Assembly (NCBI GenBank): GCA_017964405.1
Contig: JAGCSA010000028.1
Span: 2,282 to 66,281 of the forward strand
Direction: 5' to 3'
DNA from: Bacilli bacterium
GTDB taxonomy: Bacteria; Bacillota_I; Bacilli_A; RF39; UBA660
Length of the DNA: 64,000 nucleotides
Under the pieces are notes generated by a model. That model made no database searches. It was not told where the DNA came from and was given only the letters and a program-made list of their open reading frames with translations. Shown in pieces: positions 13,361 through 58,026 of the stretch; position 1 is the first letter of the stretch; every line of letters starts with the position of its first letter. A program made the position numbers and the translations under genes.

Positions 13361-13399
13361 ACAAATACTATATCATAATTCAAAGGATTAATCAATCCA

Positions 13400-19716: not shown

Positions 19717-19736
19717 TCAAATTCACCTCCAAATAA

Positions 19737-20036: not shown

Positions 20037-20122
20037 AATTTCTAACCTCCATTCTTAACTAAATTATATCATCAAAACCAAAAATGCAATATAAACTATT
20101 GTAAATATGACATTTTTTTACA

Positions 20123-20410
20123 CTATATTGAAATAGCAGCAAGTTGATCATCTAGTTCTTGAATCTGTTGAGCAGAGCTTTTAACAAACTCTCCAAAATC
20201 ATTCATTTCTTGTGCTTCTACAGTAGCAGCAGCTGTTTGTGTATTACAGGTTGTCATGAAAGAAGATTTGGCATCTCCATTCCATCCACTTAAATCAGAT
20301 TCAATATTAGATGCATACGTTGTAGTAGCAGTCTTTAAATCACTAGCAGCTGAAATCATCTTGTCTCCTGCCGCACTTACTTGACCAAAATCACAAACAA
20401 ATTTCGCCAT
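20123..20410 (-). CDS. WXG100 (ESAT-6-like) family protein
   Basis: 95 aa; LSGWNGDAKSSF W-x-G turn; ELDDQLAA C-terminus. Confidence 0.7.
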   Translation of the reverse strand: MAKFVCDFGQVSAAGDKMISAASDLKTATTTYASNIESDLSGWNGDAKSSFMTTCNTQTAAATVEAQEMNDFGEFVKSSAQQIQELDDQLAAISI

Positions 20411-20411
20411 A

Positions 20412-21851: not shown

Positions 21852-21869
21852 ATGATTCCTCCATTCTTA

Positions 21870-24518: not shown

Positions 24519-24582
24519 AGTACCCTCCATTATAGTAATATCATAGCACAAAAAAACAAAAGGATAAACACTATCCTTTTGT

Positions 24583-28338: not shown

Positions 28339-28548
28339 AAAAAATAACTATAAATTTAAGGACGTATTAACGCGGTACCACCTTAATTCATAGTTATGAC
28401 TATACACTCTAGGATTGATAACGGAATCACCCAATTTACTCAAAAGACAAGTTCATAAACATTTCTTATCTATTTTCACCAACCATAGACTCTCTAAAAA
28501 GAAAATATTTACTACTACTTCTTTCTCATCGCAAAATATATGAATATT
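28339..28548 (-). promoter_or_regulatory. T-box riboswitch leader (Leu specifier) with terminator, upstream of small ORF-leuS
   Basis: T-box AAUUAAGGUGGUACCGCG (plus 28371-28388); stem I AGAGAGUC...GGUGAAAA; GAACUUG specifier (CUU=Leu); AACUAUGAAUUAAGG/CCUUAAAUUUAUAGUU + U8 terminator; promoter TTGGAT-16-TG-n-TATAAT (-10 at 28556-28561). Confidence 0.75.
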
Positions 28549-38067: not shown

Positions 38068-39471
38068 ATGAAAAAAAAGATCATTTTCTTAATCACACTA
38101 TTGACAATTATCTTAGTAGGAAAGACAGTCCATGCAGAAGAATATACATTCTATGAAGCAGAATATCTAGATAAAATGTATATGAACAAGTATGAGTATG
38201 CAACAAACACTATCTATTATCAGAGAGCAAGACTCTTTCGAAATAGTCAAACGAAAGAAATTGCATATTGTATGGAACCATTACGGTTCTTCCAAGAAGG
38301 AAGTATCTATACGAGAACCAATGCTCCTAGTACTCTATCAGAAGAAAAGCTAAATCGAATCAAAAAGATTGCTTACTTCGGATGGAGATATAAAGATCAT
38401 TATGATGCATCCTGGTATGCTGTCGCACAAATGATGATTTGGAGAGAATCGAGTTCTGATATTGGAGACTACTACTTCACAGATACCTTAAATGGTCAAA
38501 GAACAAATGCTTTTGATTATCAAATGGATGAAATCAATCAATTAATCGAATCTTATGATCGAGAAATTCCAGTCGAGAATCAAACCATTACTCTAGTGGA
38601 AGGAATGACAAAAGAAATATCGATAGGAGATACTCTCGATTTTTATACAACTGATAATTCAGAAGTCACATTAGAAAATGGAGTAATCAAAATTCATCCA
38701 TTAGAAGAAGGAGAATACACGATTACCCTTCATAGAATCCAAGAAATCGTACATGGAATGCCTATGGAGATTTATGAATCAGAAACGAGTCAAAATATGA
38801 TTCAAAGAGGAGATTTAGATCCTAAAGAAGTCTCTTTTAAAATAAAAGTCATCCAAAACCATATAGAGATTCATAAAACAGATGAAGAAACAGATACTCC
38901 CCAGGGAGATGCTAGTCTAGATGGAGCTCTATTCGAATTATACGATGAAGAAGGAAATCTATATGATACGATTGAAATCATCCAGCAAACTGGAATTCTT
39001 ACTAGTATCCCATTCGGAACTTATACATTAAAAGAAGTGTCTCCAGGAATCGGATATGAATTAAACAAACAAGAATATACATTTACTCTTTCAGAAGAAA
39101 ATCCAAACTATGAAACAACCATCTCCAACAAGGTAATCAAAAAGAAAATCATCCTTGAAAAAACCTATGGAGAAGAAAACAAACCAGAAGAAAAAATAGA
39201 TTTTCAAATCTGGAAACAAGAAGAATTACTAGATACCATTACAACCGATGAAGAAGGAAAAGCAGAAATCATTCTACCCTATGGGATCTATATCATCAAA
39301 CAAGCCAATACAACAGAAGGATATGCTTTATTAGAACCATTCACCATCATCATAGAGAACTCTGAAGAAGAAATAATTTCCTTACATGACTTCAAAATAC
39401 CAGTACCAGATACATCATCTATCAGTATTCTTCAATATATTCTTCATACAATTGTGATGATTCTATGTTAA
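38068..39471 (+). CDS. Surface adhesin: thioester domain + two CnaB/prealbumin-fold domains + non-canonical sorting signal
   Basis: Signal peptide; AYCMEP thioester-type Cys motif; two FELYDEEGNL...GTYTLKEV / KAEIILPYGIYIIKQ CnaB-like units; C-terminal IPVPDTSS + hydrophobic tail. Confidence 0.55.
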   Translation: MKKKIIFLITLLTIILVGKTVHAEEYTFYEAEYLDKMYMNKYEYATNTIYYQRARLFRNSQTKEIAYCMEPLRFFQEGSIYTRTNAPSTLSEEKLNRIKKIAYFGWRYKDHYDASWYAVAQMMIWRESSSDIGDYYFTDTLNGQRTNAFDYQMDEINQLIESYDREIPVENQTITLVEGMTKEISIGDTLDFYTTDNSEVTLENGVIKIHPLEEGEYTITLHRIQEIVHGMPMEIYESETSQNMIQRGDLDPKEVSFKIKVIQNHIEIHKTDEETDTPQGDASLDGALFELYDEEGNLYDTIEIIQQTGILTSIPFGTYTLKEVSPGIGYELNKQEYTFTLSEENPNYETTISNKVIKKKIILEKTYGEENKPEEKIDFQIWKQEELLDTITTDEEGKAEIILPYGIYIIKQANTTEGYALLEPFTIIIENSEEEIISLHDFKIPVPDTSSISILQYILHTIVMILC

Positions 39472-40019
39472 AGAAAGTATTTTCCTTACTCTGTATCGGA
39501 ATGATGCTAGTAACAATCACAACCATCATGAAAATCAGTACAGAAGAAGCAATCATTCACACGATTCCCATACAATATCCAGAAAAAATAGCGAAAACAA
39601 AAACAATCCAAGTAGAACAACCAATCGGAAGAATTATCATTCCTAAGATTCAAATCAATCAATCGTTATATGATATCAATAGTCCCAAAAACAACATAGA
39701 AGAAAACATAACTATTCTAAAAGAATCTACTTTTCCAGATCAAGAAAACAGTCTCTTATTCATTGCAGCTCATTCTGGAAATACAAAAGTAGCTTTCTTT
39801 CAAAATCTTGATCAATTACAAATAGGAGATGAGATTCAGATACTCTATCAAAATCAAGAATACGAGTACAACATCATTGATATCTACGAACAAGAAAAAA
39901 ATGGCTATATCAGTGGAATGAGGCAAAAAACAAAAAGACAACTCATCTTAACAACGTGTTGTCCCAATAAAGATAATTGTCAATTAATCATTAATAGTAT
40001 AGAAAAAGAGTCTCATTAA
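39465..40019 (+). CDS. Sortase family transpeptidase
   Basis: N-terminal anchor; LFIAAHSG His region; LILTTCCP (TLxTC active site). Confidence 0.65.
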   Translation: MLKKVFSLLCIGMMLVTITTIMKISTEEAIIHTIPIQYPEKIAKTKTIQVEQPIGRIIIPKIQINQSLYDINSPKNNIEENITILKESTFPDQENSLLFIAAHSGNTKVAFFQNLDQLQIGDEIQILYQNQEYEYNIIDIYEQEKNGYISGMRQKTKRQLILTTCCPNKDNCQLIINSIEKESH

Positions 40020-43304: not shown

Positions 43305-44109
43305 TTACTTCTTCGTCTTCATCGTATTCAATATCTTGTTTAGGTTTTAATTCATCAATTAACATCATACGGACATCATCTAATGTTAAGTTGTATAACA
43401 TCTCTCCTTTTAAAGCAATCGATACTCTTCCAGTCTCTTCAGAAACAACAATACAAATAGCATCCGTTTCTTCTGCTAATCCAAGAGCAGCTCTATGTCT
43501 CGTTCCTAAACGTCTATTTAATTTAGGACTATTACTCGTTGGGAAAACAGCTCCCGCACAAGTAATACGATCACCTTGAATAATAACACCACCATCATGT
43601 AATGGATTTCCTTCATAGAAGATAGCAATCAATAAATCACTCGATAAATCAGCATATAACTTTTTCGCTTTATCAATATAATTTCCTAAACTGACATCTC
43701 TCTCAATAACAATTAAAGCACCAATTCTCTCTTTACGAAGATAATCAATCGCATTAATCATTTCATAAACTAAATGCTCTCTCTCATCTACTGTTAAAAC
43801 CTTATGTCTTCCTAGTAATTGATTTCTTCCTAATTGTTCCAAGATAGTACGAATCTCCGGTTGGAAGATAACAATCAAAGCAATAGGTCCCCATTGAATA
43901 ATATAATCTAGTAAATATCCAACGGTAATAAAATGAGCCCATCCACTAATAATCTTTAAAATAACAATAAATATTAATCCCTTAAAGATTAAAGATAATT
44001 TAACATTATTCTTAATATTCTTTAAGATAAAATAAAAGATTAACCATACTAACGTAATATCCGCAATCTTACGAAGTACAGTAAGTACATCTGTTAACGT
44101 AATAAACAT
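43273..44109 (-). CDS. cdaA: Diadenylate cyclase CdaA (DAC domain)
   Basis: Three N-terminal TMs; DAC motifs DGAVI-like (HDGGVIIQGDRI) and RHRAALGLAEETDA. Confidence 0.85.
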   Translation of the reverse strand: MFITLTDVLTVLRKIADITLVWLIFYFILKNIKNNVKLSLIFKGLIFIVILKIISGWAHFITVGYLLDYIIQWGPIALIVIFQPEIRTILEQLGRNQLLGRHKVLTVDEREHLVYEMINAIDYLRKERIGALIVIERDVSLGNYIDKAKKLYADLSSDLLIAIFYEGNPLHDGGVIIQGDRITCAGAVFPTSNSPKLNRRLGTRHRAALGLAEETDAICIVVSEETGRVSIALKGEMLYNLTLDDVRMMLIDELKPKQDIEYDEDEEVNEEEIYEEDK

Positions 44110-44233
44110 CGCGTCATCTCCTTATCCAGCACAAAGTCAAAAAAATAAGATTTCTTATTTTAAAACCCCATACCTATTAATATGATATCATTTTCTCCAT
44201 CATTTATCAACCAACAGAAAGAAAAAAGAGCAA

Positions 44234-46516
44234 TTAATTTTTCTTAAATGCTCTTCTAGTTCTCTCTTCTTTTGTTTTAATTTTAACAGCCTGATTAATC
44301 GCATCGGAATCTCGAAATTGAGTCTCATGGATTTTTTCAATAACCGTTAAATCCACTTTCTTTGTTTCCTTAGAGGCACTTTTTACACATAATCGCAAAC
44401 GATCTCCAAGATAATAGTTTTGTTCCCCATCTAAAGAAACCAAAGAATAACTTTCTTCACTATAAACATAATCTCCCTTTAAATCCCATACACGTACAGT
44501 AGCTTCTGCTAGGTTATCAAATTGTACAACCATACATTCATTGGAAAGACCGATAACCGTTGCTTCACACTCTTCTCCAATATGATGAGACATCATATCA
44601 GCAAACTGCATACGGAATACTTCTTGCTCTAAATCATCTGCCACTTTTTCCGTATGAGTCACTCTCTCTGCAATCTCAGGAAGTCTAGAAATCCATTTTT
44701 TTCTTTGAACCAATCCTGGATCTGGTCGAAAGACACAGTCCCAAGAAATATCCTGATTAATTTTATCACCATATCTTCTAGCTGGAGATGTTCCCTGCAT
44801 GTATTCATCTTCTGCCAATCCATTATGTCCCACATTCACTTCACTATATTTGGCACGTGATTGTGTCTTGATTAATTCTGTTAATAAGAAACTTGATAAT
44901 CTTCCACAATTAGAAACATGAGAAATAAGTTTTTGGAAAGCAGCATGATTGGATGCTAATTCTTCTGCATCATATCCATGAAAAGGAAGACCAATGGCAT
45001 CCAACATTTCTAAATACTTCTTTAATTTATCAACATTTGGTGCTTCATGAACACGATAAAGACATGGAATACCATGTTTCTGAAAGAATTTAGCTCTGGT
45101 AACATTAGCAATTAACATAAATTCTTCAATAATGTTTTCCGCAACATCTTGTGTACGAACACCAATATCTAACATATGACCATTCGGTCCATAAATACCA
45201 CTCGGTTCAGGTCGATTAAATTCATAAGCTCCGGCAGCCATTCTCTTATCATGCAGAATTTTAGCCAAATCTCTCATAACCTGTAGTGTTTGTTCATAAG
45301 ATTGATATTCTGTAGGAATATCTCCCCCTTTTAAGATTTGATTCACGGTATCATAATTCATTTTTAATTTAGAACGAGTAACAGTAGGAACATAACGGTA
45401 ATTTACTACTTTTCCTTCTGGAGTAATCTCTAAAATATCTGATATTGTCAAACGATCTTTATCTTGATTTAAAGAACCAATTTGATTGGCAATTTTACGA
45501 GGATAATTAGGAAGTACAATTCCACCAGGATAATAACTATTACCTTTACGGAATCCATCTCGATCAAGAGGAGATCCATAAGGAACTAAAGAACTAATAT
45601 CAATAATATCTACTTCTAAAACATAGTTTCCTCTTTCATTCTTATAACAACTAATGGCATCATCCATATCTTTTGTCGTAATACCATCTAAAGTAATCGT
45701 TTCATTTTGGGTACGATCTTCTCTTCCAATACGATCAACATCTCTTACTTCATCGATAATATGCTCTAGTTGTTCTAAAGATTCATTACTAAATTCATTA
45801 TCTACCCCTAATTTAAATGCTTCCCATAGAATATCTTCATTGGGATCATCTTTATGGTTAAATACTCTTACAATAGAAGCCGTATAAAAATTGGGAGCTG
45901 TTTGTTCCTCTAAAGAAACAGCAACTCTTTGTCCCTCAATCGCTTCCCCTTTTAAAGCAATGGTAATGGATTGTTTTTTCTTATCAATAGGACGTACAAA
46001 ATAACTAGAACCAATACAATAAACTTCTCCTGGAATATATTCTAGATTTCGATCTAAGACCTTAACAACCTTAATACCCTGAGTACCACCAATATCAATT
46101 AATACAAAATCTCCATCAATAGCACCATTCGTATTTTCTTTATGAACTTCATACTTTTCATTATTAACAACTAATTGACCATCCCGATCTACATAAGAGG
46201 TTGTAACAGATACTTTTCCACGACCATCTCGATTTCCATAAAATCTACCTTTTCGAAAAGAAGTTTTGGAAAAAGCAATATAATTCTCATTCGGAGTCAT
46301 ATAGATCTCATATTGAGTTACCCCTTCTCGAATCAGTTCCAATAATTCTTTCTTTTCTTCTGCCGTTAAAATAACATCGCTATGCAATTCTTCTGATTTC
46401 AACTTTTCAATTCTAGAAACAATTTTTTCAAAAGAAGCAGCCTTCTTTTCCTTTTTTAATGCTAGTTCTAGATAATGTTTCATTCCACTCATCCCCCAAT
46501 ACGTATACCTTAACAC
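44234..46516 (-). CDS. RNB-domain exoribonuclease (RNase II/R family paralog)
   Basis: ITLDGITTKDMDDAIS RNB motif; cold-shock/S1-like flanks. Confidence 0.75.
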   Translation of the reverse strand: MLRYTYWGMSGMKHYLELALKKEKKAASFEKIVSRIEKLKSEELHSDVILTAEEKKELLELIREGVTQYEIYMTPNENYIAFSKTSFRKGRFYGNRDGRGKVSVTTSYVDRDGQLVVNNEKYEVHKENTNGAIDGDFVLIDIGGTQGIKVVKVLDRNLEYIPGEVYCIGSSYFVRPIDKKKQSITIALKGEAIEGQRVAVSLEEQTAPNFYTASIVRVFNHKDDPNEDILWEAFKLGVDNEFSNESLEQLEHIIDEVRDVDRIGREDRTQNETITLDGITTKDMDDAISCYKNERGNYVLEVDIIDISSLVPYGSPLDRDGFRKGNSYYPGGIVLPNYPRKIANQIGSLNQDKDRLTISDILEITPEGKVVNYRYVPTVTRSKLKMNYDTVNQILKGGDIPTEYQSYEQTLQVMRDLAKILHDKRMAAGAYEFNRPEPSGIYGPNGHMLDIGVRTQDVAENIIEEFMLIANVTRAKFFQKHGIPCLYRVHEAPNVDKLKKYLEMLDAIGLPFHGYDAEELASNHAAFQKLISHVSNCGRLSSFLLTELIKTQSRAKYSEVNVGHNGLAEDEYMQGTSPARRYGDKINQDISWDCVFRPDPGLVQRKKWISRLPEIAERVTHTEKVADDLEQEVFRMQFADMMSHHIGEECEATVIGLSNECMVVQFDNLAEATVRVWDLKGDYVYSEESYSLVSLDGEQNYYLGDRLRLCVKSASKETKKVDLTVIEKIHETQFRDSDAINQAVKIKTKEERTRRAFKKN

Positions 46517-46551
46517 AAAATAGAATAAAAAAAAAGAGCAATTTGCTTGCT

Positions 46552-47571
46552 CTAAGAAATTCTTCTAACGGTAAGAATATGTGTACCAGATCCATTTAAC
46601 CAATAATTAACATCACTGACGATAACACCGGTACCATAATTAGCTGCATGAATCATCTGTCCATTACCAACATATAAAGCAGAATGGGTCGGATTTCCAT
46701 CCGAATAACCCCATATCAGAATATCTCCTGGTTGAGCCTCTGCATAGCTAACTCCATATCCTACATATTGTTGAGAATAAGAACTTCTACTAATAGAAAT
46801 GCCCATACAAGAATAGACATAAGATACAAATCCACTACAATCAAATCCATATGGACCTGCAGAATTCGCCATATATGGCATTCCAAGTAACGAATAAGCA
46901 ATGGAAACAACATCATTTCCTTGTGGATTCGCTGGGGCTCCATAATGAACAGGATAATAGACAGGAACTGGTTTTTCCTCTACTTCTAACTGATACGTTA
47001 AAGTAGCTTTATTACCAGAACCATCAACAGCTGTAATCGTAATTTGATGAGTTCCAACACTACTAATATCTCCATCAGAAGATAATGCATAGTATTTCAA
47101 ACTATCAGCAGGAGCATTTTCCAAAAACTCCAAATCCCCATCAATCGCATCATTAACAGATGCAATATTCTCTTTGAGATCATAGTCATCTCCCTCTGTA
47201 ATGGATACAGATTCATTCTTTAAAGAAATAATAGGAGATACCGTATCTACAACCGATATCACAACGGGTACATCTTTCACCATATTATCTTTTTTAACTT
47301 CTAGAATAACCTCTTGTGGTCCAAGAACACTGGTATCAAGATCCTGTTTTACAGAAACGATTTCACCATCAACCTCTTTTATCAATTTTTTGATATCATA
47401 ATTAGCAGTACCATATTCAACAGATGCAGTCTTTTTCACAACGACCTTAATACTTTGAAAAGTAGTGTAATTACGATATGCACAACAACTGATTATCATT
47501 ACGAATGATAACACCAACAATAAGAAGACGCGAATAACCTTCTTTATCGACGGTCTATCAAGACTTTTCAT
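46552..47571 (-). CDS. Membrane-anchored NlpC/P60 (C40) cell-wall endopeptidase with Ig-like domains
   Basis: YGFDCSGFVSYVY...HSALYVGNG...H catalytic triad region. Confidence 0.8.
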   Translation of the reverse strand: MKSLDRPSIKKVIRVFLLLVLSFVMIISCCAYRNYTTFQSIKVVVKKTASVEYGTANYDIKKLIKEVDGEIVSVKQDLDTSVLGPQEVILEVKKDNMVKDVPVVISVVDTVSPIISLKNESVSITEGDDYDLKENIASVNDAIDGDLEFLENAPADSLKYYALSSDGDISSVGTHQITITAVDGSGNKATLTYQLEVEEKPVPVYYPVHYGAPANPQGNDVVSIAYSLLGMPYMANSAGPYGFDCSGFVSYVYSCMGISISRSSYSQQYVGYGVSYAEAQPGDILIWGYSDGNPTHSALYVGNGQMIHAANYGTGVIVSDVNYWLNGSGTHILTVRRIS

Positions 47572-47744
47572 AAATAAAATCCTCCCTGATAAGTGATTAT
47601 TCTAACATAGGGAAAAATAGAAGTCAAAGAAGAAACCTATAAGAATATCTTATATTGTCTGGAAAGAAAGCAATAGCAACAAAAAAAGATGATTATAAAA
47701 ATCATCATTTTTTTAAATCTCATATACAAGTAATCTTATAAAAC

Positions 47745-48128
47745 TTAGCTGATATAATTGAAGTTTGTTCCAACACCAGTACCACCACTAGAAGGAGCAG
47801 CACTTGCAGTTGAACCAGATCCAAGACTTTCAGCAGCAGCTCTTAAAGCAGCTTCCTCTTCATCATATGCACTACAAATATTAGCAATACTACTAATAAA
47901 ATTTGCATGTGTTGAACCAAAATCAGTAAACATTTGATCTACTGTTTCGAAAGCAGCAAAATAAGTATCAGCTCCGGAACTAATCCAAGAACCTTTAAGA
48001 GTTGCAGCTTCATTACGAATCTGTGTAAATAGAGAATCTACTTCCGCATAAATATTGTTTATTTCTGTAGCTACTTGACCAACTGAATCTGTTTCTACAT
48101 CAATATTATTATCACCAATAAATGTCAT
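47745..48128 (-). CDS. ESAT-6/WXG100-like small protein
   Basis: 127 aa helical; LKGSWISSGADTYFAAFE turn; Ser/Gly-rich tail. Confidence 0.5.
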   Translation of the reverse strand: MTFIGDNNIDVETDSVGQVATEINNIYAEVDSLFTQIRNEAATLKGSWISSGADTYFAAFETVDQMFTDFGSTHANFISSIANICSAYDEEEAALRAAAESLGSGSTASAAPSSGGTGVGTNFNYIS

Positions 48129-48142
48129 CCGAAATCACTTCC

Positions 48143-48433
48143 CTATACCATTTTAGATAAAGCATCACTTAAAGCTTTATCAAATCCAGATGCTCTATCA
48201 CTTACAAATTTAGCATGTTTCTCTAATTCTGTATTGATTTTCTTTGCATCTGCACTAAAAGAATTATACTTTGTAACTAATGCTTGTCCAGCTTTATCTT
48301 TCCAAGAAGATGTTACTGAACTCATCTTAGTATCCATTTCAACAATTTTAGGTCCAAGTTCTCCAACTAAGCTCGTAATCTTAGCAGCATAACCAGCTGC
48401 CGCAGCAGTATCTACTTGTAAAGAAGAACCCAT
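48143..48433 (-). CDS. ESAT-6/WXG100-like small protein
   Basis: 96 aa; SSWKDKAGQA turn. Confidence 0.5.
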   Translation of the reverse strand: MGSSLQVDTAAAAGYAAKITSLVGELGPKIVEMDTKMSSVTSSWKDKAGQALVTKYNSFSADAKKINTELEKHAKFVSDRASGFDKALSDALSKMV

Positions 48434-48499
48434 ATAATCACTTCCTATACTTAGCTTAATTTAAAAAGAGCACATTGAATAATGTGCTGATTTTTTATA

Positions 48500-48892
48500 T
48501 TACATTACAGCTGCTGAGCTAACACCTGCACCAGTGCCACCGCCGCCACCAACTGATCCTACAGAAGATGGGCTGTGAGCTTGAATTACTCTTAGTAATT
48601 CTGCTTCCTCAGCATCGTATTCATTAGCAACTTTAGATAAAGCAGCAGCTAAATCTGTTAATGAAGCAGATACTGTATTGAATGCAGTCTTGTCAATTTC
48701 AACAAGATTAGTCTTTAAAGCACCACCAACAGCAGTACCTTCTCCACCACATGCAGCTACAGCATCATTACCAGCTTTGTTAACTGTATCAATTACTTGA
48801 CTAATTGTATTTAACTCAGTCGTTATAGTGGTAGCAGCGTCTACCAACGTACTGGTTTCTACATCAATTGCATTGTCTCCAACGAATGCCAT
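48500..48892 (-). CDS. ESAT-6-like small protein, paralog of 47745-48128
   Basis: Shares MxF(V/I)GDNxIDVET N-terminus and YDAEEAxLR motif with 47745-48128; Gly-rich tail. Confidence 0.5.
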   Translation of the reverse strand: MAFVGDNAIDVETSTLVDAATTITTELNTISQVIDTVNKAGNDAVAACGGEGTAVGGALKTNLVEIDKTAFNTVSASLTDLAAALSKVANEYDAEEAELLRVIQAHSPSSVGSVGGGGGTGAGVSSAAVM

Positions 48893-48930
48893 TAAAAATC
48901 ACTCCTTTATAATTATTATTTCTTTTTTTA

Positions 48931-49224
48931 TTAGTATAATTTTTGAACGTTCGTTCTTACTGTTTGTTGAGTAGCAGCAGCTTTAGATGCCATCTCATTT
49001 AATAGTTTTCTGTTAAGAGCTAAATTTGTTTCAATCTTCTCAAATTCAGTATTAGCAGCAGTAGCAACTTCCGTCCAATCAGAACCACCTTTATCGTTCC
49101 ATAGAGGGGAATCCATAGCAGTTTTAATTTTTGCTCTTGATGTAGCATAAGTAGTACATGCTGAATTGTATGTACCAGCTGCAGCAATCAATCCACTATT
49201 ATCAATTTGGAAAGCCATATCTAT
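48931..49224 (-). CDS. WXG100 (ESAT-6-like) family protein
   Basis: About 97 aa from MAFQIDNSGLIAAAG; PLWNDKGGSDW turn; resembles 20123-20410. Confidence 0.55.
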   Translation of the reverse strand: MDMAFQIDNSGLIAAAGTYNSACTTYATSRAKIKTAMDSPLWNDKGGSDWTEVATAANTEFEKIETNLALNRKLLNEMASKAAATQQTVRTNVQKLY

Positions 49225-49322
49225 CATACCTCCTATTCTCATTATAGCATAACAATCCATTTTGTCAAAAATAATCTACATTATTTTCAGCCTTACTTTA
49301 CACCGAACTGTCCCTTATTTTT

Positions 49323-51587
49323 TTATTGATCCATACCGATGCCTTGTAACCATTCTTTATCCATGAATGGTGCAGTAGCTTCTTCTAATTCACCCTCTTC
49401 ATGAGTTTCTTCAACAGTCTCAGTTTGTTCTAATGGGTTATTAGCAAATTGTACTTCATCAACATCGTTACTATCATCGAAGTAATCATCCATAGAGATT
49501 CCAGCATATACAAAGTCAGCATCATCAACATTTTCAAAACATTGATTAATAACATTATACATATTGTAATCATCAATAGCATTCTTACCATCAATAATCA
49601 TTGTAATGAACAATAAGTAGTCGATAATCTTATGTTTCTCATCAAACATAGAATATCCGTAAAGCTTAGCTAACTCTTCTTCGCAAGAAACACCTTCTTT
49701 AACAGCTTTATCAACTTTCTTAGAATGTTCTCTTAATTCACTAGCAAGAATCTTAAACTTAGAATTCTTGAATGTTTCAATTTCATCTTCAGAGAATCCA
49801 ACTTTCTTCATTAATTTAGAAACAATAGCTTGATAATCAGGCCCTAATGCTTCCCAATCTTCTGGAGTAAAGTGGATAACACTTAACTTCGTAGCAGCAA
49901 GGATTCCTCCACCAGCAGCAGCACTACCACCAGCAATACCAGCAGCAGCAATAATTCCTGCACTTGCTTTATTCGTATTGATTCCTTGAGTAGTTCCACC
50001 CATATGTGGTGCAACACCAGATGCTAATTTAGCAACCCCCTTACCGATGGCATCTGCAACTCCTGTAGCAGCACCAGCAGCTGTAGCTAAACCTTCTTTA
50101 GCAGCTCCAGCAACGGCAGCAGCAACGCCTCCACCTTCACCGGTCTTAACTCCTCCACCAGTAGTTCCACCACCAGGTTTCGTTGGATCTTCAGCTCCAG
50201 GAAGTCCTCCACCAATACTTGTACCAGGTGTCGTAGCAGGAGGATTGGTTGGATTGGTATCTCCACCAGGTTGTTCTCCAGTTGGTTCTCCACCTGTAGG
50301 TTCTTCTCCAGTAGGAACTTCACCAACAGGTTGAGGTGTTTCAGTAGAAGGTTGTTGTGGAAGTAAATCATGAATAATCTTTTGATATTCTTCCTCAGTA
50401 ATTTCACCCTTCTTCAATTTTTCATATGCATCACTAATTTGTTGCATTGCTTTTGCATAATCTTCTGGACTCATTTGACCAGTTCTAACACTTTCAAGCA
50501 TTGAATTAATATCAGCCAAAGCTTGAGCATATGTTTCTTGACTAACCTTACCAGAGGCAACTCCCTCAAGTAATTGATTAATATCACTCATTGTTTGATG
50601 ATATAGGTTATCATCAATCTTGCCATTCTTTAATAGATCCATTGCACCATTCATGGTGTCTAATGTAGCCTTATAAGTATCTTGATCGATTTGACCATTC
50701 TTTAATAAGGTTGCAGCATCTTCAATGTTATCCATTGTAGCAGCGAAAGATTCATCACTCATCTTATCAAGTGCTAAGCAATCCATAGCTTTATCCATCG
50801 TATCAAGAGTTTGTTTATAAGTATCCTCATCCATCTTACCATTTGCAACAGCGGCAGCTGCAGCATCCATAGCATCAAGGAACTTCGTATAAGCTTCTTC
50901 ACTCATCTTACCAGAGTCAACTAAACTCATAGCACGTTTCAACGCATCAACAGCCTTAGCATACGTTTCATCAGAAATCTTACCATCTTTTAAGATATCC
51001 ATTAAACTACTTAAAGTATCAATTGTATGAGCATACGTTTCATCTTTAATCTTCTTAGCTTTTAATAAAGCAATAGCAGCAGCAATGGCATTCAATGTCT
51101 TAGCATAAGATCCTTCACTCATCTTACCGTCATCACGAAGGCTCTTTGCCTTATCTTTGGCATCACATGTCTTAGCCCAAGACTCATCACTCATCTCATC
51201 AGGTTTTTCCTCATCACCCTTCTTACCAGGGCCATCAGGCGTAACCGGAGTAACACCTCCACCACCATTTGGTGTCTTGCTCTTACCAGCACCATCAATA
51301 TTTTCATTATCTTGTTCAATTAAAGCAGCAATATAAGCTCTAGCAGCTTCAATATTGGTTCTAGCGTCTGAAACAATTTTATCGGTAAAGGCAGCTAATG
51401 TTGAAAAGTATTGAATATCATATTCAGCACCTAAAGAACCGGTAGCTCCTTGGCTATTACCAGATCCATAATAATCTTCCAATGTGTTGCAAATTGTTTC
51501 TACATTACTTACTGCTTGTTCAGCATCAGCATAAATGATTTTAATATCAGCCATATTATTAGTCGAATAGACAAGTTCGACTAGCAC
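49323..51587 (-). CDS. Large secreted/effector-like protein: WXG/LXG-like N-domain + 24-aa tandem repeats + Gly/Ala-rich hydrophobic segments + acidic C-terminal domain
   Basis: 754-aa ORF (start GTG 51587 or ATG 51551); helical N-terminus; ~10.5 repeats GKMSxExYxKxLDxMxxAxxLLKx; PT/G-rich linker; GGGVAAAVAGAA and IIAAAGIAGGSAAAGGGILAA segments. Confidence 0.6.
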   Translation of the reverse strand: MLVELVYSTNNMADIKIIYADAEQAVSNVETICNTLEDYYGSGNSQGATGSLGAEYDIQYFSTLAAFTDKIVSDARTNIEAARAYIAALIEQDNENIDGAGKSKTPNGGGGVTPVTPDGPGKKGDEEKPDEMSDESWAKTCDAKDKAKSLRDDGKMSEGSYAKTLNAIAAAIALLKAKKIKDETYAHTIDTLSSLMDILKDGKISDETYAKAVDALKRAMSLVDSGKMSEEAYTKFLDAMDAAAAAVANGKMDEDTYKQTLDTMDKAMDCLALDKMSDESFAATMDNIEDAATLLKNGQIDQDTYKATLDTMNGAMDLLKNGKIDDNLYHQTMSDINQLLEGVASGKVSQETYAQALADINSMLESVRTGQMSPEDYAKAMQQISDAYEKLKKGEITEEEYQKIIHDLLPQQPSTETPQPVGEVPTGEEPTGGEPTGEQPGGDTNPTNPPATTPGTSIGGGLPGAEDPTKPGGGTTGGGVKTGEGGGVAAAVAGAAKEGLATAAGAATGVADAIGKGVAKLASGVAPHMGGTTQGINTNKASAGIIAAAGIAGGSAAAGGGILAATKLSVIHFTPEDWEALGPDYQAIVSKLMKKVGFSEDEIETFKNSKFKILASELREHSKKVDKAVKEGVSCEEELAKLYGYSMFDEKHKIIDYLLFITMIIDGKNAIDDYNMYNVINQCFENVDDADFVYAGISMDDYFDDSNDVDEVQFANNPLEQTETVEETHEEGELEEATAPFMDKEWLQGIGMDQ

Positions 51588-51824
51588 CTCTTTTCATTAT
51601 TTAGTAAGAAGTTGTCCATCTCTTCCCACAAATGATCGTCAACAAAGAGTGTTTATAAAGATTTCTCTTTATTTTCTACTATCAAGCACATAAAAACTTG
51701 CTAGCAGACACCTACTCTATAATATATTTTAATATAACCTGTTGTCTCATTTCAACAACAAATTTTGATTTTATTGAATAATTGACATTTTATGAAAAAA
51801 TAACTGTAAAAAAGAGTCAATTAA

Positions 51825-52406
51825 TTATTTTGTTTTCTCCGTTCTAGAAATATACCAAAAGAACAAAGAACCAAAGTAATTTCCAAGAATAGCAAAAACC
51901 AAAGACCAATCAAAAGTTCTCGCAACTCCTAACGTAATAACATTCGCAATACAGTGTTGAAATCCACAGAATATAAATAAAGGAATACCAAAGATAATAC
52001 CAAGAGGTGTTTTTTCTCGATACATCTTAACGGCAATATACATAATCGTTCCGCATAAGAATGCTTTAATAAAGAATGGAATAGAACACTCCCAAGTATC
52101 CACTTTCGCTACAGCAGTCTTAATAAGTTCAGGATCTGCATAACTATATAGTAATCCAAATAAGTATCCAGCAATCAAATTGACAACTAAAATAATCATT
52201 AAATCAAGAAAAGGAATCTTATCCTCAATAAAGAATCCACATTTCCCTGTAAATAGATTTTGTCCTAAATAACAGACCCCTAGTAATCCAAATGCAAAAA
52301 TAACGGGTCCAATGGGAGTCCCCAATTTCAACAATGCATAATTTCCTAAAGAAATTAAAAAAGCAGCCCCTATACTCTTTAATATTAATTCTTTCTTACC
52401 TTTCAT
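51825..52406 (-). CDS. Polytopic membrane protein with formate/nitrite-transporter-like motifs
   Basis: LGQNLFTGK and FQHCIANVITLGVA resemble FNT signatures, but the protein is short (193 aa). Confidence 0.3.
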   Translation of the reverse strand: MKGKKELILKSIGAAFLISLGNYALLKLGTPIGPVIFAFGLLGVCYLGQNLFTGKCGFFIEDKIPFLDLMIILVVNLIAGYLFGLLYSYADPELIKTAVAKVDTWECSIPFFIKAFLCGTIMYIAVKMYREKTPLGIIFGIPLFIFCGFQHCIANVITLGVARTFDWSLVFAILGNYFGSLFFWYISRTEKTK

Positions 52407-52462
52407 ATAATCACCTTAAAAAAAGTATATCACAAATAAAAAAAGATTGTGAAAAACAATCT

Positions 52463-53029
52463 TTATTTCTTCTCTACTTTTGGTATAACTTTATCCATAA
52501 ATCTCTTTTCCTTTTGAACAGGAACTTCTTTCTCTGTATAACGAGATGCTAAAAGAGATAATTCATGATAAAATTTCTCAAATTCTTGATAATAATATCC
52601 ATATTGAGAACCACTCGTACGAATCCTTACCTTGATTCTCTCTTTTAAAACAGCATTTAAAACTTCTTGATATAACATCACATAAATAGAATGATCACTT
52701 AATTGTAACTTTAAAGTATTATCTGGATCCGTATCAGAATGCCAAGTAATTGATTGATTCTCAATATTAATAAAATCTTCAGGAAGACCCGTATCATTAT
52801 ATAAATAATATCTACCAATAATGGATTTCATCAATCCCTCAAAAACTCGATATGTCTCATCTTCCTCCGGTTCTCTTCTAGAGTGATAATCAATCGGAAC
52901 TGAAAGAGATGGATTTGCCGTACAAAACCAAATATCCCCATCAGGATATTTCTCAACACTAAAACGTTTCCCATCTTTTCCAATAATAATATCTCCATGG
53001 TCTTCTTTAATCTCAAAATGCTTCTCCAT
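52463..53029 (-). CDS. Hypothetical cytoplasmic protein
   Basis: 188-aa ORF with coding-like composition; no recognisable motif. Confidence 0.4.
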   Translation of the reverse strand: MEKHFEIKEDHGDIIIGKDGKRFSVEKYPDGDIWFCTANPSLSVPIDYHSRREPEEDETYRVFEGLMKSIIGRYYLYNDTGLPEDFINIENQSITWHSDTDPDNTLKLQLSDHSIYVMLYQEVLNAVLKERIKVRIRTSGSQYGYYYQEFEKFYHELSLLASRYTEKEVPVQKEKRFMDKVIPKVEKK

Positions 53030-53095
53030 AGAATCCCCTCATCTCGATTGTTATTATAACATTCCTATCCTAAAAAAACAATTTAATATAAATAA

Positions 53096-53124
53096 TTGGT
53101 AAAAATATAAAATAATGTTATAAT
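53096..53124 (+). promoter_or_regulatory. Sigma-A type promoter with extended -10
   Basis: TTGGTA-17 nt-TGtTATAAT, then AAGAGGA RBS and ATG at 53144. Confidence 0.5.
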
Positions 53125-53143
53125 GAAATAAGAGGATGGTATT

Positions 53144-53740
53144 ATGCTAGAAATAAAAGAAATACCAGAAATGGGTGGAAGTGAAGAGCTTGAAAAAGTA
53201 TGTTATACCCTTTATGGTTATCGCGAAAAAGGAATCGATGCTTTTTATGATTTTAATGGAGTTAAAATCTATTCAAAAAATATAACAGGTCCTGATTCCA
53301 TCGAAAAAATGTATCAAAAAGTATATGGATGCAGTTATGCAGAACATGTCAAAGAAAAAGCAAAGAAACAAAGACCAATATGGTTAGAAAGTGGTTATCA
53401 AATACTTCCTACAGAAAAACACGAAAGATGGGAACAATTTGTAGATAGTGTGATTGAAGCAATGGATTCTTATGCTCATGGACCTAATCCCATAACGGAT
53501 ACATTGGTAAATATTGCAAGAATCAATTCAATTGCTAGTGAGCAAGAATTACGGGAATTCATTTGGACTTTGGATGGTTCCAATAAAGTATTAATCAAGG
53601 CAGCCATCGAGTTTTCTAATAAAGGAGACCTCATTCGAAAAATAGTTTGGGGAGATAAATCTGGAGAGGATATAACGGCAAAAGATCTAGTAGAAGAAGA
53701 ACAACCAGCAGAAGAAACAAAACAATCCCCAATAAAATAA
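53144..53740 (+). CDS. Hypothetical protein
   Basis: 198-aa ORF with promoter and RBS; no recognisable motif. Confidence 0.4.
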   Translation: MLEIKEIPEMGGSEELEKVCYTLYGYREKGIDAFYDFNGVKIYSKNITGPDSIEKMYQKVYGCSYAEHVKEKAKKQRPIWLESGYQILPTEKHERWEQFVDSVIEAMDSYAHGPNPITDTLVNIARINSIASEQELREFIWTLDGSNKVLIKAAIEFSNKGDLIRKIVWGDKSGEDITAKDLVEEEQPAEETKQSPIK

Positions 53741-53808
53741 TAATAGACGAGCATTGCTCGTCTTTTTTCATGAAAAAAACTAACATTTCTGTTAGTTATA
53801 AATCAATA

Positions 53809-54191
53809 TGGTGGAGATGAGGAGAATCGAACTCCTGTCCGAAAATAGAGCTACATAAACCTCTACAAGCTTAGTTAACTAATTAATTTCGCATAATAAC
53901 CAAGTAGTTAACGACCAAGTTACTATACTAGTCTTAAAATTCTTTCTATCCTATAGACGTAGGATAGCTATAACCTATCAAAATGATCCTCGAAAGGGCT
54001 CCTAGGTGAGAACCCTTAAGAAGAGCTAGCCTTATTTATTCTATTAGGCAAAAGCAACAGCTTGGTTTGCGCCAAACAATGTTACTATAGCATTTTTAAT
54101 TTTATTTGCATTTATTTTTTTTCGCCCGTGACGTGGACATTCCGACTTGCCATCTATGCTCTCTTATTCCCGTCGAAACCAAGTCATCCCC
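53809..54191 (-). ncRNA. ssrA: tmRNA (SsrA)
   Basis: 5' GGGGAUGACUUGGUUUCGACGGG and 3' GGACAGGAGUUCGAUUCUCCUCAUCUCCACCA; internal tag ORF ANKIKNAIVTLFGANQAVAFA-stop; directly downstream of smpB. Confidence 0.85.
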
Positions 54192-54255
54192 ATGTGTATA
54201 GATTATACCATAAAAATAGGATTTTGAAAAGAGAAAAAAAGACACCAAGTGTCTT

Positions 54256-54693
54256 TTAATGATTCTTAATATTTTTCTGAACATCTCTTTGAATATCTCG
54301 TTCTTTCATAGTCTCTCTCTTATCATAAGTCTTTTTACCACGACAAACTCCTAATAATACCTTTAAAAGATTATCTTTGAAATAAATCTTTAAAGGAACA
54401 AGAGTTAATCCTTGTTGTTCAATTGCCTGTGTCATTTTTTTGATCTCTTTCTTATGAAGTAATAACTTACGACTTCTTGTTTCATTATGATTAAAGATGT
54501 TTCCTTCTTTATAAGCACCAATGTACATATTTAATAGAAAAACTTCTCCATTACGAACAATCCCATAGGAATCCTTAATATTACAATGTCCATTACGAAC
54601 AGATTTAATTTCTGTTCCTGTTAAAACAATTCCCGCTTCATATTCTTCTTCTACAAAATAATCAAATTTCGCTCTTCTATTCAATATCTCCAT
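54256..54693 (-). CDS. smpB: SsrA-binding protein
   Basis: 145 aa; conserved SmpB sequence and position between rnr and ssrA. Confidence 0.9.
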   Translation of the reverse strand: MEILNRRAKFDYFVEEEYEAGIVLTGTEIKSVRNGHCNIKDSYGIVRNGEVFLLNMYIGAYKEGNIFNHNETRSRKLLLHKKEIKKMTQAIEQQGLTLVPLKIYFKDNLLKVLLGVCRGKKTYDKRETMKERDIQRDVQKNIKNH

Positions 54694-55914: not shown

Positions 55915-58026
55915 TTAACTTACCTTTCTAACAATTTCAAAATCAACTGTTTTTTCTTCTTTATTAGCTCTAACTACTTTGACAACAACTCTTTCTCCAA
56001 TCGAATACTTCATATGACTCTTTTCTCCTGTAAGAGTTAAGTGTTCTTCATCAAAATGATAGAAATCATCCAACTCTCTTAAAGGAACTAACCCTTCAAT
56101 TAAGTTATCTAATTCTACAAACATACCAAAACTAGTAATAGAAGAAATCATACCTTCAAAAGTCTCCCCAATATGTTTTTCCATATATTCAGCCATCTTC
56201 ATATCATCGACTTCTCTCTCACAATCAACAGATGCTCTCTCTCTTTCAGAAGAATGTTCTGCAATACCAGGAAGTTTTTCTTCCCATTTATGAACCGTCT
56301 CCATATCAGCATGACCATCAAATAAATACGTATGAAGTAAACGATGAACCGTCGTATCTGGGAATCGACGTATCGGAGAAGTAAAATGCGTATAACAATC
56401 ACTTGCTAAACCATAATGTCCTAAGTTATCAGGACTATAAATAGCCTTCTTCATACTTCTTAATAACAAATTAGAAAGAATCTTATATTCTGGTTTATCC
56501 TCTAATTGAAAAACAATATCTTGAACAAACTTAGGACTTAAGTCCTTCAAATCTCCATTGACATGATATCCAAGTCCACTGACAAATCCTAAGAAACTAC
56601 GAATCTTATCTTCCTCTGGAGTTTCATGAATACGATAAATAAAAGGAAGATTCATAAAATAAATATGAGTTGCCACACACTCATTAGCAGCAATCATAAA
56701 GTCTTCTATTAACTTTTCTCCTGTACCACGGTCTCTTAATACAACATCCGTAGGAACACAGTTCTCATCTACTAAGATTTTAGCCTCATCAACAGCAAAA
56801 TCAATATAACCTCTCTTAATCTTTGCCTTTCTTAAAATATCCGCTAACTCTGCCATTGTTTTTAAGTCATATACATAAGGCTCATATTCATCAGGAACCT
56901 GATCTTTTTCTAAGATACTATTAACTTTCTTATAAGTCATTTGAATTCGAGAACGAATGACACTTGGGAAAATCTCATAATCCAATTGTTTTCCTGCTCC
57001 ATCGAACTCCATCACACATGAGATTGCTAAACGATCTACATTTGGATTTAAAGAACAAATTCCATTGGATAATTCATGAGGAATCATAGGAATAACACGG
57101 TCTACTAAATAAACACTCGTTCCCCTCTCTTCAGCTGCTTCATTTAAAGCAGTGCCCTCTCTTACATAATAACTGACATCTGCAATATGAACTCCTAATT
57201 GATAATGACCATTCGATAAAATTTTAATACTAATGGCATCATCAATATCTTTTGTATCATCTCCATCAATCGTAAAAATAGTCTCTTCTCTTAAATCTCT
57301 ACGATCTTTCATCTCTTCTTCTGAGACTTCCATCGGAATATGTTTTACTTCATTCTTTACTTCATCAGAAAATTCTACAGGAATATTATATTTATAAATA
57401 ATAGAAAGAATATCCACTCCTGGATCATTTTGATGTCCCAAGATTTCCATAACTCTTCCTTCATATCTTCCAGAACTATTCAATTTCTTCTCTAAACGAA
57501 CAACTACTTTATGCCCGTCTACAGCATTTAAACTCTTTCCTTTTGGAATCTCAATCATTAACTTAATCTTATTATCATCTAATTGAATATGACCAATTCC
57601 CTTATCATCAAATGTAATAACACCAACAAAATTGGTCATCTTACGAGCAAGAATCTTTAAAACTCTACCCTCTAAACGATCCAAATTCATTTTACTCGTT
57701 ATTTCAACTAAAACAACATCATCATGAATAGCCCCATTCATATTCTCTTGCGATACATAAATATCATCATCTAAATTTTCTACTTCTACAAATCCAAAAC
57801 CCTTTTTATTAACACGCATGATACCTTTTCGAAGATGACTATTCTCTAGTAACATATACTTATTCTTATTAGAGTGATAAATCAAAACCTCTTCTTCTAA
57901 TTGTTTCAAATCCTTTAATAAAATTTCTAATTCTTCTGCTGTCGATATTTCTAAGGATTCTTGCAATTCATCAATATCTAAAGCACGATCTGTATTTCTA
58001 AGTACATTGAGAATACTCTCTCTCAT
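55915..58026 (-). CDS. rnr: Ribonuclease R
   Basis: FTIDGDDTKDIDDAIS RNB motif; C-terminal S1 domain; rnr-smpB-ssrA synteny. Confidence 0.9.
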   Translation of the reverse strand: MRESILNVLRNTDRALDIDELQESLEISTAEELEILLKDLKQLEEEVLIYHSNKNKYMLLENSHLRKGIMRVNKKGFGFVEVENLDDDIYVSQENMNGAIHDDVVLVEITSKMNLDRLEGRVLKILARKMTNFVGVITFDDKGIGHIQLDDNKIKLMIEIPKGKSLNAVDGHKVVVRLEKKLNSSGRYEGRVMEILGHQNDPGVDILSIIYKYNIPVEFSDEVKNEVKHIPMEVSEEEMKDRRDLREETIFTIDGDDTKDIDDAISIKILSNGHYQLGVHIADVSYYVREGTALNEAAEERGTSVYLVDRVIPMIPHELSNGICSLNPNVDRLAISCVMEFDGAGKQLDYEIFPSVIRSRIQMTYKKVNSILEKDQVPDEYEPYVYDLKTMAELADILRKAKIKRGYIDFAVDEAKILVDENCVPTDVVLRDRGTGEKLIEDFMIAANECVATHIYFMNLPFIYRIHETPEEDKIRSFLGFVSGLGYHVNGDLKDLSPKFVQDIVFQLEDKPEYKILSNLLLRSMKKAIYSPDNLGHYGLASDCYTHFTSPIRRFPDTTVHRLLHTYLFDGHADMETVHKWEEKLPGIAEHSSERERASVDCEREVDDMKMAEYMEKHIGETFEGMISSITSFGMFVELDNLIEGLVPLRELDDFYHFDEEHLTLTGEKSHMKYSIGERVVVKVVRANKEEKTVDFEIVRKVS

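Follow-up and report, generated by a model that had tools for sequence, protein, structure and literature searches.

A Fast-Evolving Cassette of WXG100 Genes and One Large Gene beside the tmRNA Gene of an Uncultured Gut Bacterium

Introduction

Pairs of WXG100 proteins, in which one partner carries a WxG-type motif and the other a YxxxD/E-type motif, are the signature of ESX/type VII substrates, and the YxxxD/E pattern is known as an ESX secretion signal. In secretion systems of type VIIb (T7SSb), LXG polymorphic toxins such as TelA-C of S. intermedius have Lap1/Lap2 targeting partners (PMC10801868). In addition, the LXG domain of TelE binds two small proteins (bioRxiv 10.64898/2026.03.12.711312; PMC10434224), and TelE, TspA, and EsxX are glycine-zipper, membrane-depolarizing toxins of T7SSb (PMC10434224; PMC12744356). 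In this study, we analyzed a window of 64 kb, that is, the whole stretch of 64,000 nucleotides taken from contig JAGCSA010000028.1 of an uncultured Bacilli bacterium (assembly GCA_017964405.1, positions 2,282 to 66,281). We found that it contains a fast-evolving five-gene cassette, which lies beside the transfer-messenger RNA (tmRNA) gene of this low-GC gut bacterium and encodes four WXG100 proteins (B1 to B4) and one large protein.

The best explanation of these genes is that they encode cargo of the type VII style (ESX/WXG100), namely, WXG100 pairs with a large partner, and we give this reading a probability of about 0.5. Our literature searches on T7SSb in Erysipelotrichaceae, on the "endolysin-like domain" with WXG100, and on WXG100 with NlpC gave nothing relevant. 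All positions below are those of the window unless another locus is named.

Small WXG100 Genes of the Cassette

The five genes are co-directional on the minus strand and lie between an NlpC/P60 gene (46552-47571) and an FNT-family gene (51825-52406). All five open reading frames (ORFs) were found at the coordinates given by an earlier sequence-only reading of the window. The four small genes encode 95, 130, 96, and 127 amino acids (aa). The large gene encodes 743 aa from an ATG, not 754 aa from a GTG. The longer ORF begins with the GTG at 51587 and the shorter one with the ATG at 51554 ("MADIKIIY"). On 9 metagenome contigs, all with identical synteny, the exact 743-aa product was called, whereas no record exists of the 754-aa version. 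Thus, the ATG at 51554 is most likely the start, and the large gene occupies 49323-51554.

The four small genes follow the large gene. B1 (48931-49218, 95 aa, "MAFQIDN") is WXG100-like with a W-x-D-x-x-G turn. We corrected its start to 49218, because a perfect promoter falls inside the longer ORF and gene callers use the 95-aa form. This promoter (49241-49268) is a consensus sigma-70 promoter, TTGACA-16-TATAAT with an extended TG and 12/12 matches. B2 (48500-48892, 130 aa) is helical, with "EYDAEEAELL" as its C-terminal YxxxE motif and with a tail of Gly/Ser. B3 (48143-48433, 96 aa) has a W-K-D-K-A-G turn. B4 (47745-48128, 127 aa) has "SWISSG" and "AYDEEEAAL" (YxxxE) motifs and also a Gly/Ser tail. 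A terminator-like hairpin at 48469-48488 on the same strand lies between B1-B2 and B3-B4.

The gathering score of Pfam WXG100 (PF06013) is 27.3 bits, and B3 (32.6 bits) and B4 (28.2 bits) pass it. In NCBIfam WXG100_ESAT6 (TIGR03930), these two proteins score 29.7 and 34.9 bits, respectively. B2 reaches only 12.7 bits in Pfam WXG100, below the gathering score, and B1 has no match in Pfam. For B1 and B2, the evidence comes from profile comparison and paralogy. The B1 family, built with the orthologues from three related loci (L007, L025, and L026), matched the B3 family in hhalign (E = 2.2e-5), and W40, D42, and G45 are invariant in its 4 sequences. Its profile also matched the solved WXG100 proteins SAG1039, gbs1074, and EsxA (E = 0.002-0.17). 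The B2/B4 family matched the B3 family over 88 columns (hhalign, E = 4.8e-5). Two of the small genes had been claimed to be paralogues, and this holds for B2 and B4 (27% identity over 126 aa, E = 2e-13). Furthermore, the B3 family profile matched CFP-10/EsxB (E = 5e-4), and the full-length profile alignments of the small proteins to the hairpin structures 3gvm, 3o9o, 2vrz, 3fav, and 1wa8 gave E values from 5e-4 to 0.17. The H. pylori protein HP0062 was among the weak PDB profile matches. Because of the hhalign results (B1 and B2) and the paralogy to B4 (B2), B1 and B2 can be placed in the WXG100 superfamily beside B3 and B4. All four small proteins (95-130 aa) thus belong to it, and the earlier description of them as WXG100/ESAT-6-like is upheld, by Pfam threshold for B3 and B4 and by paralogy and profile comparison for B1 and B2.

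The turn motifs are WNDKGG in B1, WKDKAG in B3 (W-x-D-x-x-G is kept in the orthologues of both), and WISSG in B4. The YDxEE motif is conserved in B2 and B4, fits the YxxxD/E pattern, and is followed by the Gly/Ser tail. The motifs that the sequence-only reading had quoted, SWISSGADTYFAAFE, PLWNDKGG, and YD(A/E)EEA, are all present. In addition, the 5' end of B4 and its ribosome-binding region lie in a 57-nt block that is repeated at B2 (48091-48147 versus 48855-48911, 75% identity). Judged from sequence comparison, B1 to B4 are a tandem duplication of one pair, consisting of a WxDxxG-type protein (B1, B3) and a YDxEE-type protein (B2, B4). This pair structure is backed by the alignments, the terminator between the pairs, the promoter before B1, and the 5' block that B2 and B4 have in common.

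Large Protein

The large gene ("BIG" in our annotation) is, in the window, the founding member of an unannotated family of putative single-pass membrane proteins. The protein fits no family of Pfam, NCBIfam, PADLOC, or PHROGs, and a PDB sequence search gave no match. It has no N-terminal signal peptide, and residues 8-86 are predicted to be helical. The predicted N-terminal hairpin (aa 1-88, 51291-51554) has a conserved turn motif, aromatic-G-G...YF, in which G42, Y49, F50, and L53 are invariant across 6 homologues, and it covers only about 85 aa. The sequence-only reading had called this N-terminus WXG/LXG-like. We found just a predicted helix-turn-helix there. Pfam LXG (PF04740) did not match the large protein at E ≤ 1 and hhalign of the N-terminus against the small WXG100 families found no link.

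The hairpin is followed by about twelve SHOCT-like helical repeats of 24 residues (aa 119-407, 50334-51200). They were seen in the repeat listing and also as 72-nt DNA repeat families (D2-D4), so that the repeats claimed earlier are real. AlphaFold2 predicted twelve helices here with a predicted local distance difference test score (pLDDT) above 93, and the repeats are predicted to form a helical-repeat rod. Foldseek matched the repeat region solely to designed helical-repeat proteins. Next comes a low-complexity linker (aa 408-526, 49977-50333), which is first Pro/Gly/Thr-rich and then Ala/Gly-rich and is mostly predicted to be disordered (mean pLDDT of about 30-48 per 10-residue block).

A Kyte-Doolittle peak marks an Ala/Gly-rich hydrophobic segment, ASAGIIAAAGIAGGSAAAGGGILAATKL (aa ~527-556, 49887-49976), a putative transmembrane helix or small-xxx-small (glycine-zipper-like) segment. 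It is followed by the conserved C-terminal domain (aa 557-697, 49464-49886), which runs from "FTPEDW" through YLLFITMIIDGKN to "YNMYN" and is the defining module of the family. The domain is compact in the AlphaFold2 model (pLDDT of about 95), its conserved part is about 112 aa long, and it has no match among the solved (PDB) structures. The protein ends in an acidic disordered tail (residues 698-743, 49326-49463) with a conserved terminal peptide, DKEWLQGIGMDQ (KEWLxGIG end).

Family Members and Their Gene Contexts

An exhaustive HMMER search of 1.84 billion protein representatives found just 90 cluster representatives that match the large protein, and the part common to these relatives is the C-terminal region. 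Other searches found little. A word-indexed search with the full-length protein gave low-complexity candidates only and no match, and the same kind of search with the C-terminal domain gave only 4 fragments. In species-representative genomes, a single-protein scan gave no match, and a 10-sequence alignment found only two metagenome-assembled genomes, labelled "uncultured Bacilli/Bacillales". The family was found in uncultured Bacilli from metagenomes that, judged by their sample names, come from ruminant and rabbit guts. A Pfam scan of 68 members (E ≤ 0.01) listed no family that covers them, and LXG was not listed. Taken together, these searches indicate that the large protein belongs to a rare, unannotated, and undescribed family.

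The members share one architecture, namely, a helical stretch of about 100 aa at the N-terminus, a variable middle, the hydrophobic segment, the domain, and the acidic tail. The N-terminal region falls into several unrelated sequence types, and the middle consists of either SHOCT-like repeats or extra copies of the ~112-aa domain. Most members have an uncharged Ala/Gly-rich stretch within 50 residues upstream of the domain, and most of the closer homologues have Lys or Arg directly after the hydrophobic segment. The tails average 31% Asp/Glu. Furthermore, the C-terminal end of 38 of the 89 members with the domain reads W-[LI]-[KQRTENS]-x-[ILMV]-[GE], mostly (K/E)(E/D)WL(K/Q)xIG.

In all eight other contexts with visible neighbours (L007, L008, L010, L013, L025, L026, L081, and L082, from at least 6 different organisms), the family member stands beside at least one small WXG100-like gene; most of these neighbours were recognized by turn motifs and faint or weak Pfam matches, and a statistical link to B1-B4 was obtained only for the L007 gene. 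In L007, the closest homologue (P0001) is followed downstream by a B1 orthologue (39% identity), and L025 and L026 keep the order of the window, with the large gene before four small genes. The arrangement in more distant lineages (L008, L010, and L013) is two genes for proteins of ~99 and ~100 aa, one for ~250-290 aa, and the large gene, all between a gltD-like gene and prfB. For instance, 101-aa and 99-aa genes lie upstream of the large gene in L008. The cassette of L010 (8366-15672) consists of two tandem units, and their small genes encode identical proteins, which suggests a recent duplication. In L013 (5167-12124), 97-aa and 95-aa genes accompany three consecutive large paralogues (566, 519, and 707 aa). 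The still more distant members in L081 and L082 have an upstream pair of ~100 aa each. The small proteins beside related large genes carry the canonical WxG, as WTG, WFG, WYG, or WWG.

In L008 (8034-8801), L010 (9089-9964 and 12905-13696), L013 (5874-6599), and L082 (9133-9987), the WXG100 pair is separated from the large gene by a mid-size gene (241-291 aa). It is conserved, belongs to no Pfam family, and has a C-terminal half rich in Trp, Tyr, and Cys. The cassette of the window has no counterpart of it.

Variation at the ssrA Site

The stretch that holds the cassette, which we call the islet, is bounded upstream by the tmRNA gene ssrA (53809-54191, minus strand; ARAGORN and Rfam RF00023, 173.6 bits) and downstream by the conserved, conventional NlpC/P60 hydrolase gene (minus strand; Pfam NLPC_P60, 78.8 bits); both flanks agree with those described before. 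It also contains the short gene of the FNT-family membrane protein (Pfam match; minus strand) and, between this gene and ssrA, two orphan genes, one of 188 aa (52463-53029, minus strand) and one of 198 aa (53144-53740, plus strand). Related metagenome loci were fetched via the flanking RNB exoribonuclease, and the genes of the window were mapped onto them.

The flank of ssrA is variable, as had been proposed. Three relatives (L020, L022, and L023) have smpB, ssrA, the NlpC/P60 gene, and the RNB gene without the cassette; SmpB is 75-76% and CdaA 86-87% identical to the window. Their gaps between ssrA and the NlpC/P60 gene are only 197-709 bp and lack the FNT gene and both orphans as well. The other two (L025 and L026) carry a highly diverged, rearranged version. 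In L026, the flanks are close to the window (RNB 81%, CdaA 96%, and YbbR 92% identity), whereas the large protein shares only 46.6%, B2 41%, and B3 27%. In L025 (RNB 77%), the cassette lies directly beside ssrA, the FNT gene (76% protein identity) is relocated downstream, the other accessory genes differ, and the orphans of the window are absent. The NlpC/P60 gene beside the RNB gene is kept in all the relatives examined. With flanking genes 76-96% identical in close relatives, the cassette diverges far faster than its flanks.

A 133-aa gene with hydrophobic stretches lies directly 3' of ssrA in L025 (2153-2554) and replaces the orphan genes of the window; thus, the content of the islet turns over. 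The two orphan genes have no Pfam, PADLOC, or PHROGs match, and a bidirectional terminator lies at 53745-53763. We speculate that they may be orphan immunity-like genes.

The position directly 3' of ssrA, the empty site in L020, L022, and L023, and the different gene content between ssrA and the NlpC/P60 gene in the window and L025 would fit a mobile genomic island that integrated site-specifically into the 3' end of ssrA, and a possible integration island had indeed been suggested. However, there is no integrase or recombinase gene in 44-54 kb, and no direct repeat of the ssrA 3' end among 51 direct-repeat families (20 of them listed) in 44000-54300. The codon-usage check against core genes that had been proposed along with the island showed no deviation: GC content at third codon positions (GC3) is 0.10-0.21 in the cassette genes and 0.18-0.23 in core genes, which is native, and the raised total GC of the cassette is due to its Ala/Gly/Pro content. 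The cassette and islet proteins had no PHROGs or PADLOC matches, and residues 557-742 of the large protein gave no phage or plasmid match in tblastn. Moreover, the cassette family is found at other chromosomal sites elsewhere, such as the site between the gltD-like gene and prfB. Since integrase and ssrA repeat are lacking and GC3 is native, we regard the region as a variable islet and not as a recognizable mobile island, and the island explanation is very improbable. Integration at ssrA was rejected as the mechanism for the same reasons, and a phage, plasmid, or defence origin was rejected on the tblastn, PHROGs, and PADLOC results.

Divergence within the large protein is uneven. Compared with L026 and L025, respectively, the N-terminus is 26% and 25% identical, the repeats 43% and 34%, the hydrophobic segment 80% and 60%, and the C-terminal domain 74% and 65%. 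The C-terminus is thus the conserved part and the N-terminus the variable part, which is the opposite of a polymorphic toxin.

This gradient bears on another explanation, in which the large protein is an antibacterial membrane-depolarizing type VII toxin of the TelE/TspA/EsxX kind and the small proteins are its targeting or chaperone partners. The Ala/Gly-rich small-xxx-small segment would then insert into the membrane of a competitor. Such a toxin is suggested by the conserved glycine-zipper-like hydrophobic segment near the C-terminus, by the adjacent genes for small helical partners, as for TelE, by the tandem arrays in L010 and L013, and by the variable presence and fast divergence of the cassette. 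Furthermore, both the window and L025 have the gene of the small FNT-family membrane protein together with the cassette, and this protein could in principle be an immunity factor. However, LXG toxins show the reverse of the conservation seen here, where the segment, the ~112-aa soluble domain, the acidic tail, and the peptide are conserved, and no LXG domain is detectable. In addition, no gene for a membrane-protein immunity factor follows the large gene in L008, L010, L013, and L082, where prfB, the next cassette, or housekeeping genes come instead. The FNT protein was judged unlikely as the immunity protein, as its degree of conservation is that of a housekeeping gene and the other cassette contexts lack it. 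The toxin explanation is weakened by the conservation of the C-terminus and by the lack of an immunity gene, and we consider both it and the insertion into a competitor's membrane quite unlikely.

Locus A and the Modular N-Terminus

A second locus of similar logic had been proposed at 19.4-22.8 kb, and we found it there. This locus A (19426-22775, minus strand) consists of genes for two peptidoglycan hydrolases with NlpC/P60 and ELLD (PF25309) domains (301 and 479 aa), followed by three WXG100 genes (95-99 aa). Neither hydrolase has a signal peptide. The 301-aa hydrolase has a WXG100-like N-terminus, with a sub-threshold WXG100 match and a canonical "SWQGSS" motif. The small protein of 20123-20410 had been said to resemble that of 48931-49224. 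The likeness holds at the superfamily level but not as close paralogy (30.6% identity over 49 aa, E = 0.02, with E values taken from a 10-sequence database), and therefore the "dispersed multigene family" proposed for the small proteins of both loci was not borne out.

The 479-aa hydrolase (20412-21851) and a member of the large-protein family (P0059, in L012) share an N-terminal module, with 45% identity over the first 82 residues of the hydrolase (E = 2e-19). N-terminal modules are thus exchanged between wall-hydrolase cargo and membrane-protein cargo. P0059 stands beside Fic, YkuD, and MurJ genes, which resembles the setting of locus A. In the window, a Fic-domain gene (24583-25551) and a MurJ-like flippase gene (22866-24551), both on the minus strand, flank locus A; in L012, the Fic/MurJ neighbourhood around P0059 (2056-3189 and 7443-9095) also includes a YkuD L,D-transpeptidase.

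Proposed Export of the Cassette Proteins

In the type VII-style reading, the small proteins would form EsxA/EsxB-like heterodimers, and these heterodimers would guide the hairpin at the N-terminus of the large protein to an EssC-dependent (type VIIb) exporter, whose genes would lie elsewhere in the genome. No signal peptide is present in the large protein, which would be anchored by its Ala/Gly-rich hydrophobic segment. The fast-evolving hairpin, helical-repeat rod, and Pro/Gly/Thr linker would end up outside, and the conserved ~112-aa domain, the acidic tail, and the KEWLxGIG peptide would form a docking module that remains in the cytoplasm. We favour this N-out/C-in surface-anchor topology over a classical toxin because the protein has no signal peptide, a Pro/Gly/Thr stretch precedes the segment, Lys/Arg follow it, and conservation forms a gradient along the protein. 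Even so, the topology is tentative and in our judgement somewhat unlikely, because other members carry copies of the domain upstream of the segment and AlphaFold2 gave no confident helix there.

Several results weigh against the type VII-style reading. No gene for FtsK/SpoIIIE (EssC) or another T7SSb core component was seen in the 64-kb window, whose largest ORF is 806 aa and whose larger genes that were scanned (about half of those in the window) are all unrelated or unassigned in function. Longer contigs of the same species showed housekeeping genes only, and no EssC, in ~4-8 kb beyond each window end, and there was no EssC-like gene in eleven distinct family loci with flanks. As no machinery gene is visible within reach, we infer the type VII link from family membership and architecture. 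In addition, the small proteins do not have the strict W-x-G turn motif, their turns being non-canonical (WxDxxG), and Pfam and hhalign showed no statistical similarity between the N-terminus of the large protein and LXG or WXG100. AlphaFold2 predicted the N-terminal helices of this protein (residues 8-30 and 47-86) with moderate confidence only (pLDDT 50-75) and gave the hydrophobic segment a low pLDDT. The domain copies N-terminal to the segment, found in many family members, are awkward for a simple N-out/C-in arrangement.

The absence of EssC from the window, from just beyond its ends, and from the family loci also leads to a further explanation, in which the genome has no type VII system and the cassette is unrelated to export; its products would be an intracellular or membrane-tethered scaffold, for example, for cell-envelope growth. 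In accord with this, the cassettes lie among housekeeping and cell-wall genes (NlpC/P60, MurJ, YkuD, FemAB, prfB, and ftsEX-pcsB), their codon usage is native, and the domains of the large proteins are acidic and contain Cys. Orphan WXG100-like proteins also exist without a type VII system, such as HP0062 of H. pylori, a species in which we know of no such system. However, pairs of the WxG and YxxxD/E types are the hallmark of ESX/type VII substrates, and it would be unusual for a housekeeping scaffold that N-terminal parts and small proteins diverge this fast beside flanks of 76-96% identity. Furthermore, locus A fuses the same kind of N-terminal module to NlpC/P60 hydrolases, which must exit the cytoplasm and yet have no signal peptides. 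We therefore assign the scaffold a low probability.

A bolder version of the type VII-style reading is that the family is a new class of single-pass surface proteins without signal peptides, whose long extracellular N-terminal region is exported via dedicated WXG100 pairs and which serve in transmembrane display or signalling rather than as toxins. The export route would be the type VII system, or another route not yet described if the lineage lacks EssC, and the novel-fold cytoplasmic domain and the tethered C-terminal docking peptide would remain inside. We consider this version unlikely.

If the type VII link is true, the cargo of type VIIb systems extends beyond soluble WXG100 proteins and LXG toxins to a conserved membrane-anchored family. 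If the genomes lack EssC, the cassettes offer a clean test case for WXG100 pairs without a type VII machine. Both loci of the window together show that N-terminal hairpin modules are swapped between very different cargoes, namely, this membrane protein and wall hydrolases of the NlpC/P60 type. Since the presumably exposed parts diverge fast, these proteins probably take part in interactions between cells or between phage and host in the gut.

Other Features of the Window

Two RNB-family exoribonucleases (44234-46483 and 55915-58026, both on the minus strand) bracket the region and are about 31-32% identical to each other. One is an RNase R of 703 aa, and the second is a 749-aa protein without an S1 domain, which diverges unusually fast between relatives (44-81% identity versus 86-96% for CdaA). 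The tag peptide of the tmRNA predicted by ARAGORN, ANKIKNAIVTLFGANQAVAFA, is long (21 residues) and ends in AFA. On the plus strand (38068-40019), the annotation shows a gene for a SpaA-type pilin of 467 aa with TED/SpaA domains and, after it, one for a sortase of 184 aa, which indicates that the organism has sortase-assembled pili. T-box leaders (Rfam RF00230) lie at 13180-13362 and 28355-28538 on the minus strand (101.5 and 112.6 bits), and one of them is upstream of a 128-aa ORF and leuS.

Comparison with Known Systems

The repeat of the large protein, "GKMSEEEYxKxLDxMD", resembles the consensus of SHOCT (PF09851; 25 bits, E = 1.5e-5). However, the score is under the gathering threshold of 27, and the unit is repeated 12-fold in tandem in a predicted rod, whereas SHOCT is a single C-terminal module. 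Within the family, the SHOCT-like repeat occurs only in the closest relatives (P0001, P0008, P0018, P0055, and the members in L025 and L026).

Like TelE, TspA, and EsxX, the large protein has several small partners and, in its C-terminal part, a conserved hydrophobic segment rich in Gly/Ala, and its toxicity is putative. Unlike these toxins, it continues after the segment with a conserved folded domain of ~112 aa, an acidic tail, and a terminal peptide, and no membrane immunity protein is encoded downstream.

Like the LXG toxins, it is a large protein with an N-terminal helical region and at least two adjoining genes for small alpha-helical partners. The modular N-terminus common to different C-terminal cargoes and the multi-copy, variable loci are further similarities. 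However, the LXG domain (~200 aa) was undetected in 68 family members, the C-terminus is conserved and the N-terminus variable, and no immunity gene is evident, the genes downstream being WXG100-like or housekeeping. In addition, the partner genes lie downstream and not upstream in this lineage.

The small proteins differ from EsxA/EsxB (ESAT-6/CFP-10) in their turns, which are WxDxxG (B1 and B3) or WISSG (B4) and not WxG, and in the Gly/Ser-rich C-terminal extensions of B2 and B4 (127-130 aa). Moreover, the pair is duplicated in tandem, and no FtsK/SpoIIIE ATPase gene is nearby. Nevertheless, like EsxA/EsxB, they are putative helical hairpins of about 100 aa that are encoded by adjacent gene pairs; one partner has a turn motif with Trp, and the other has a YxxxD/E-like motif that follows helix 2. 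B3 and B4 exceed the Pfam threshold, and the profiles match the solved structures of EsxA, EsxB, and CFP-10.

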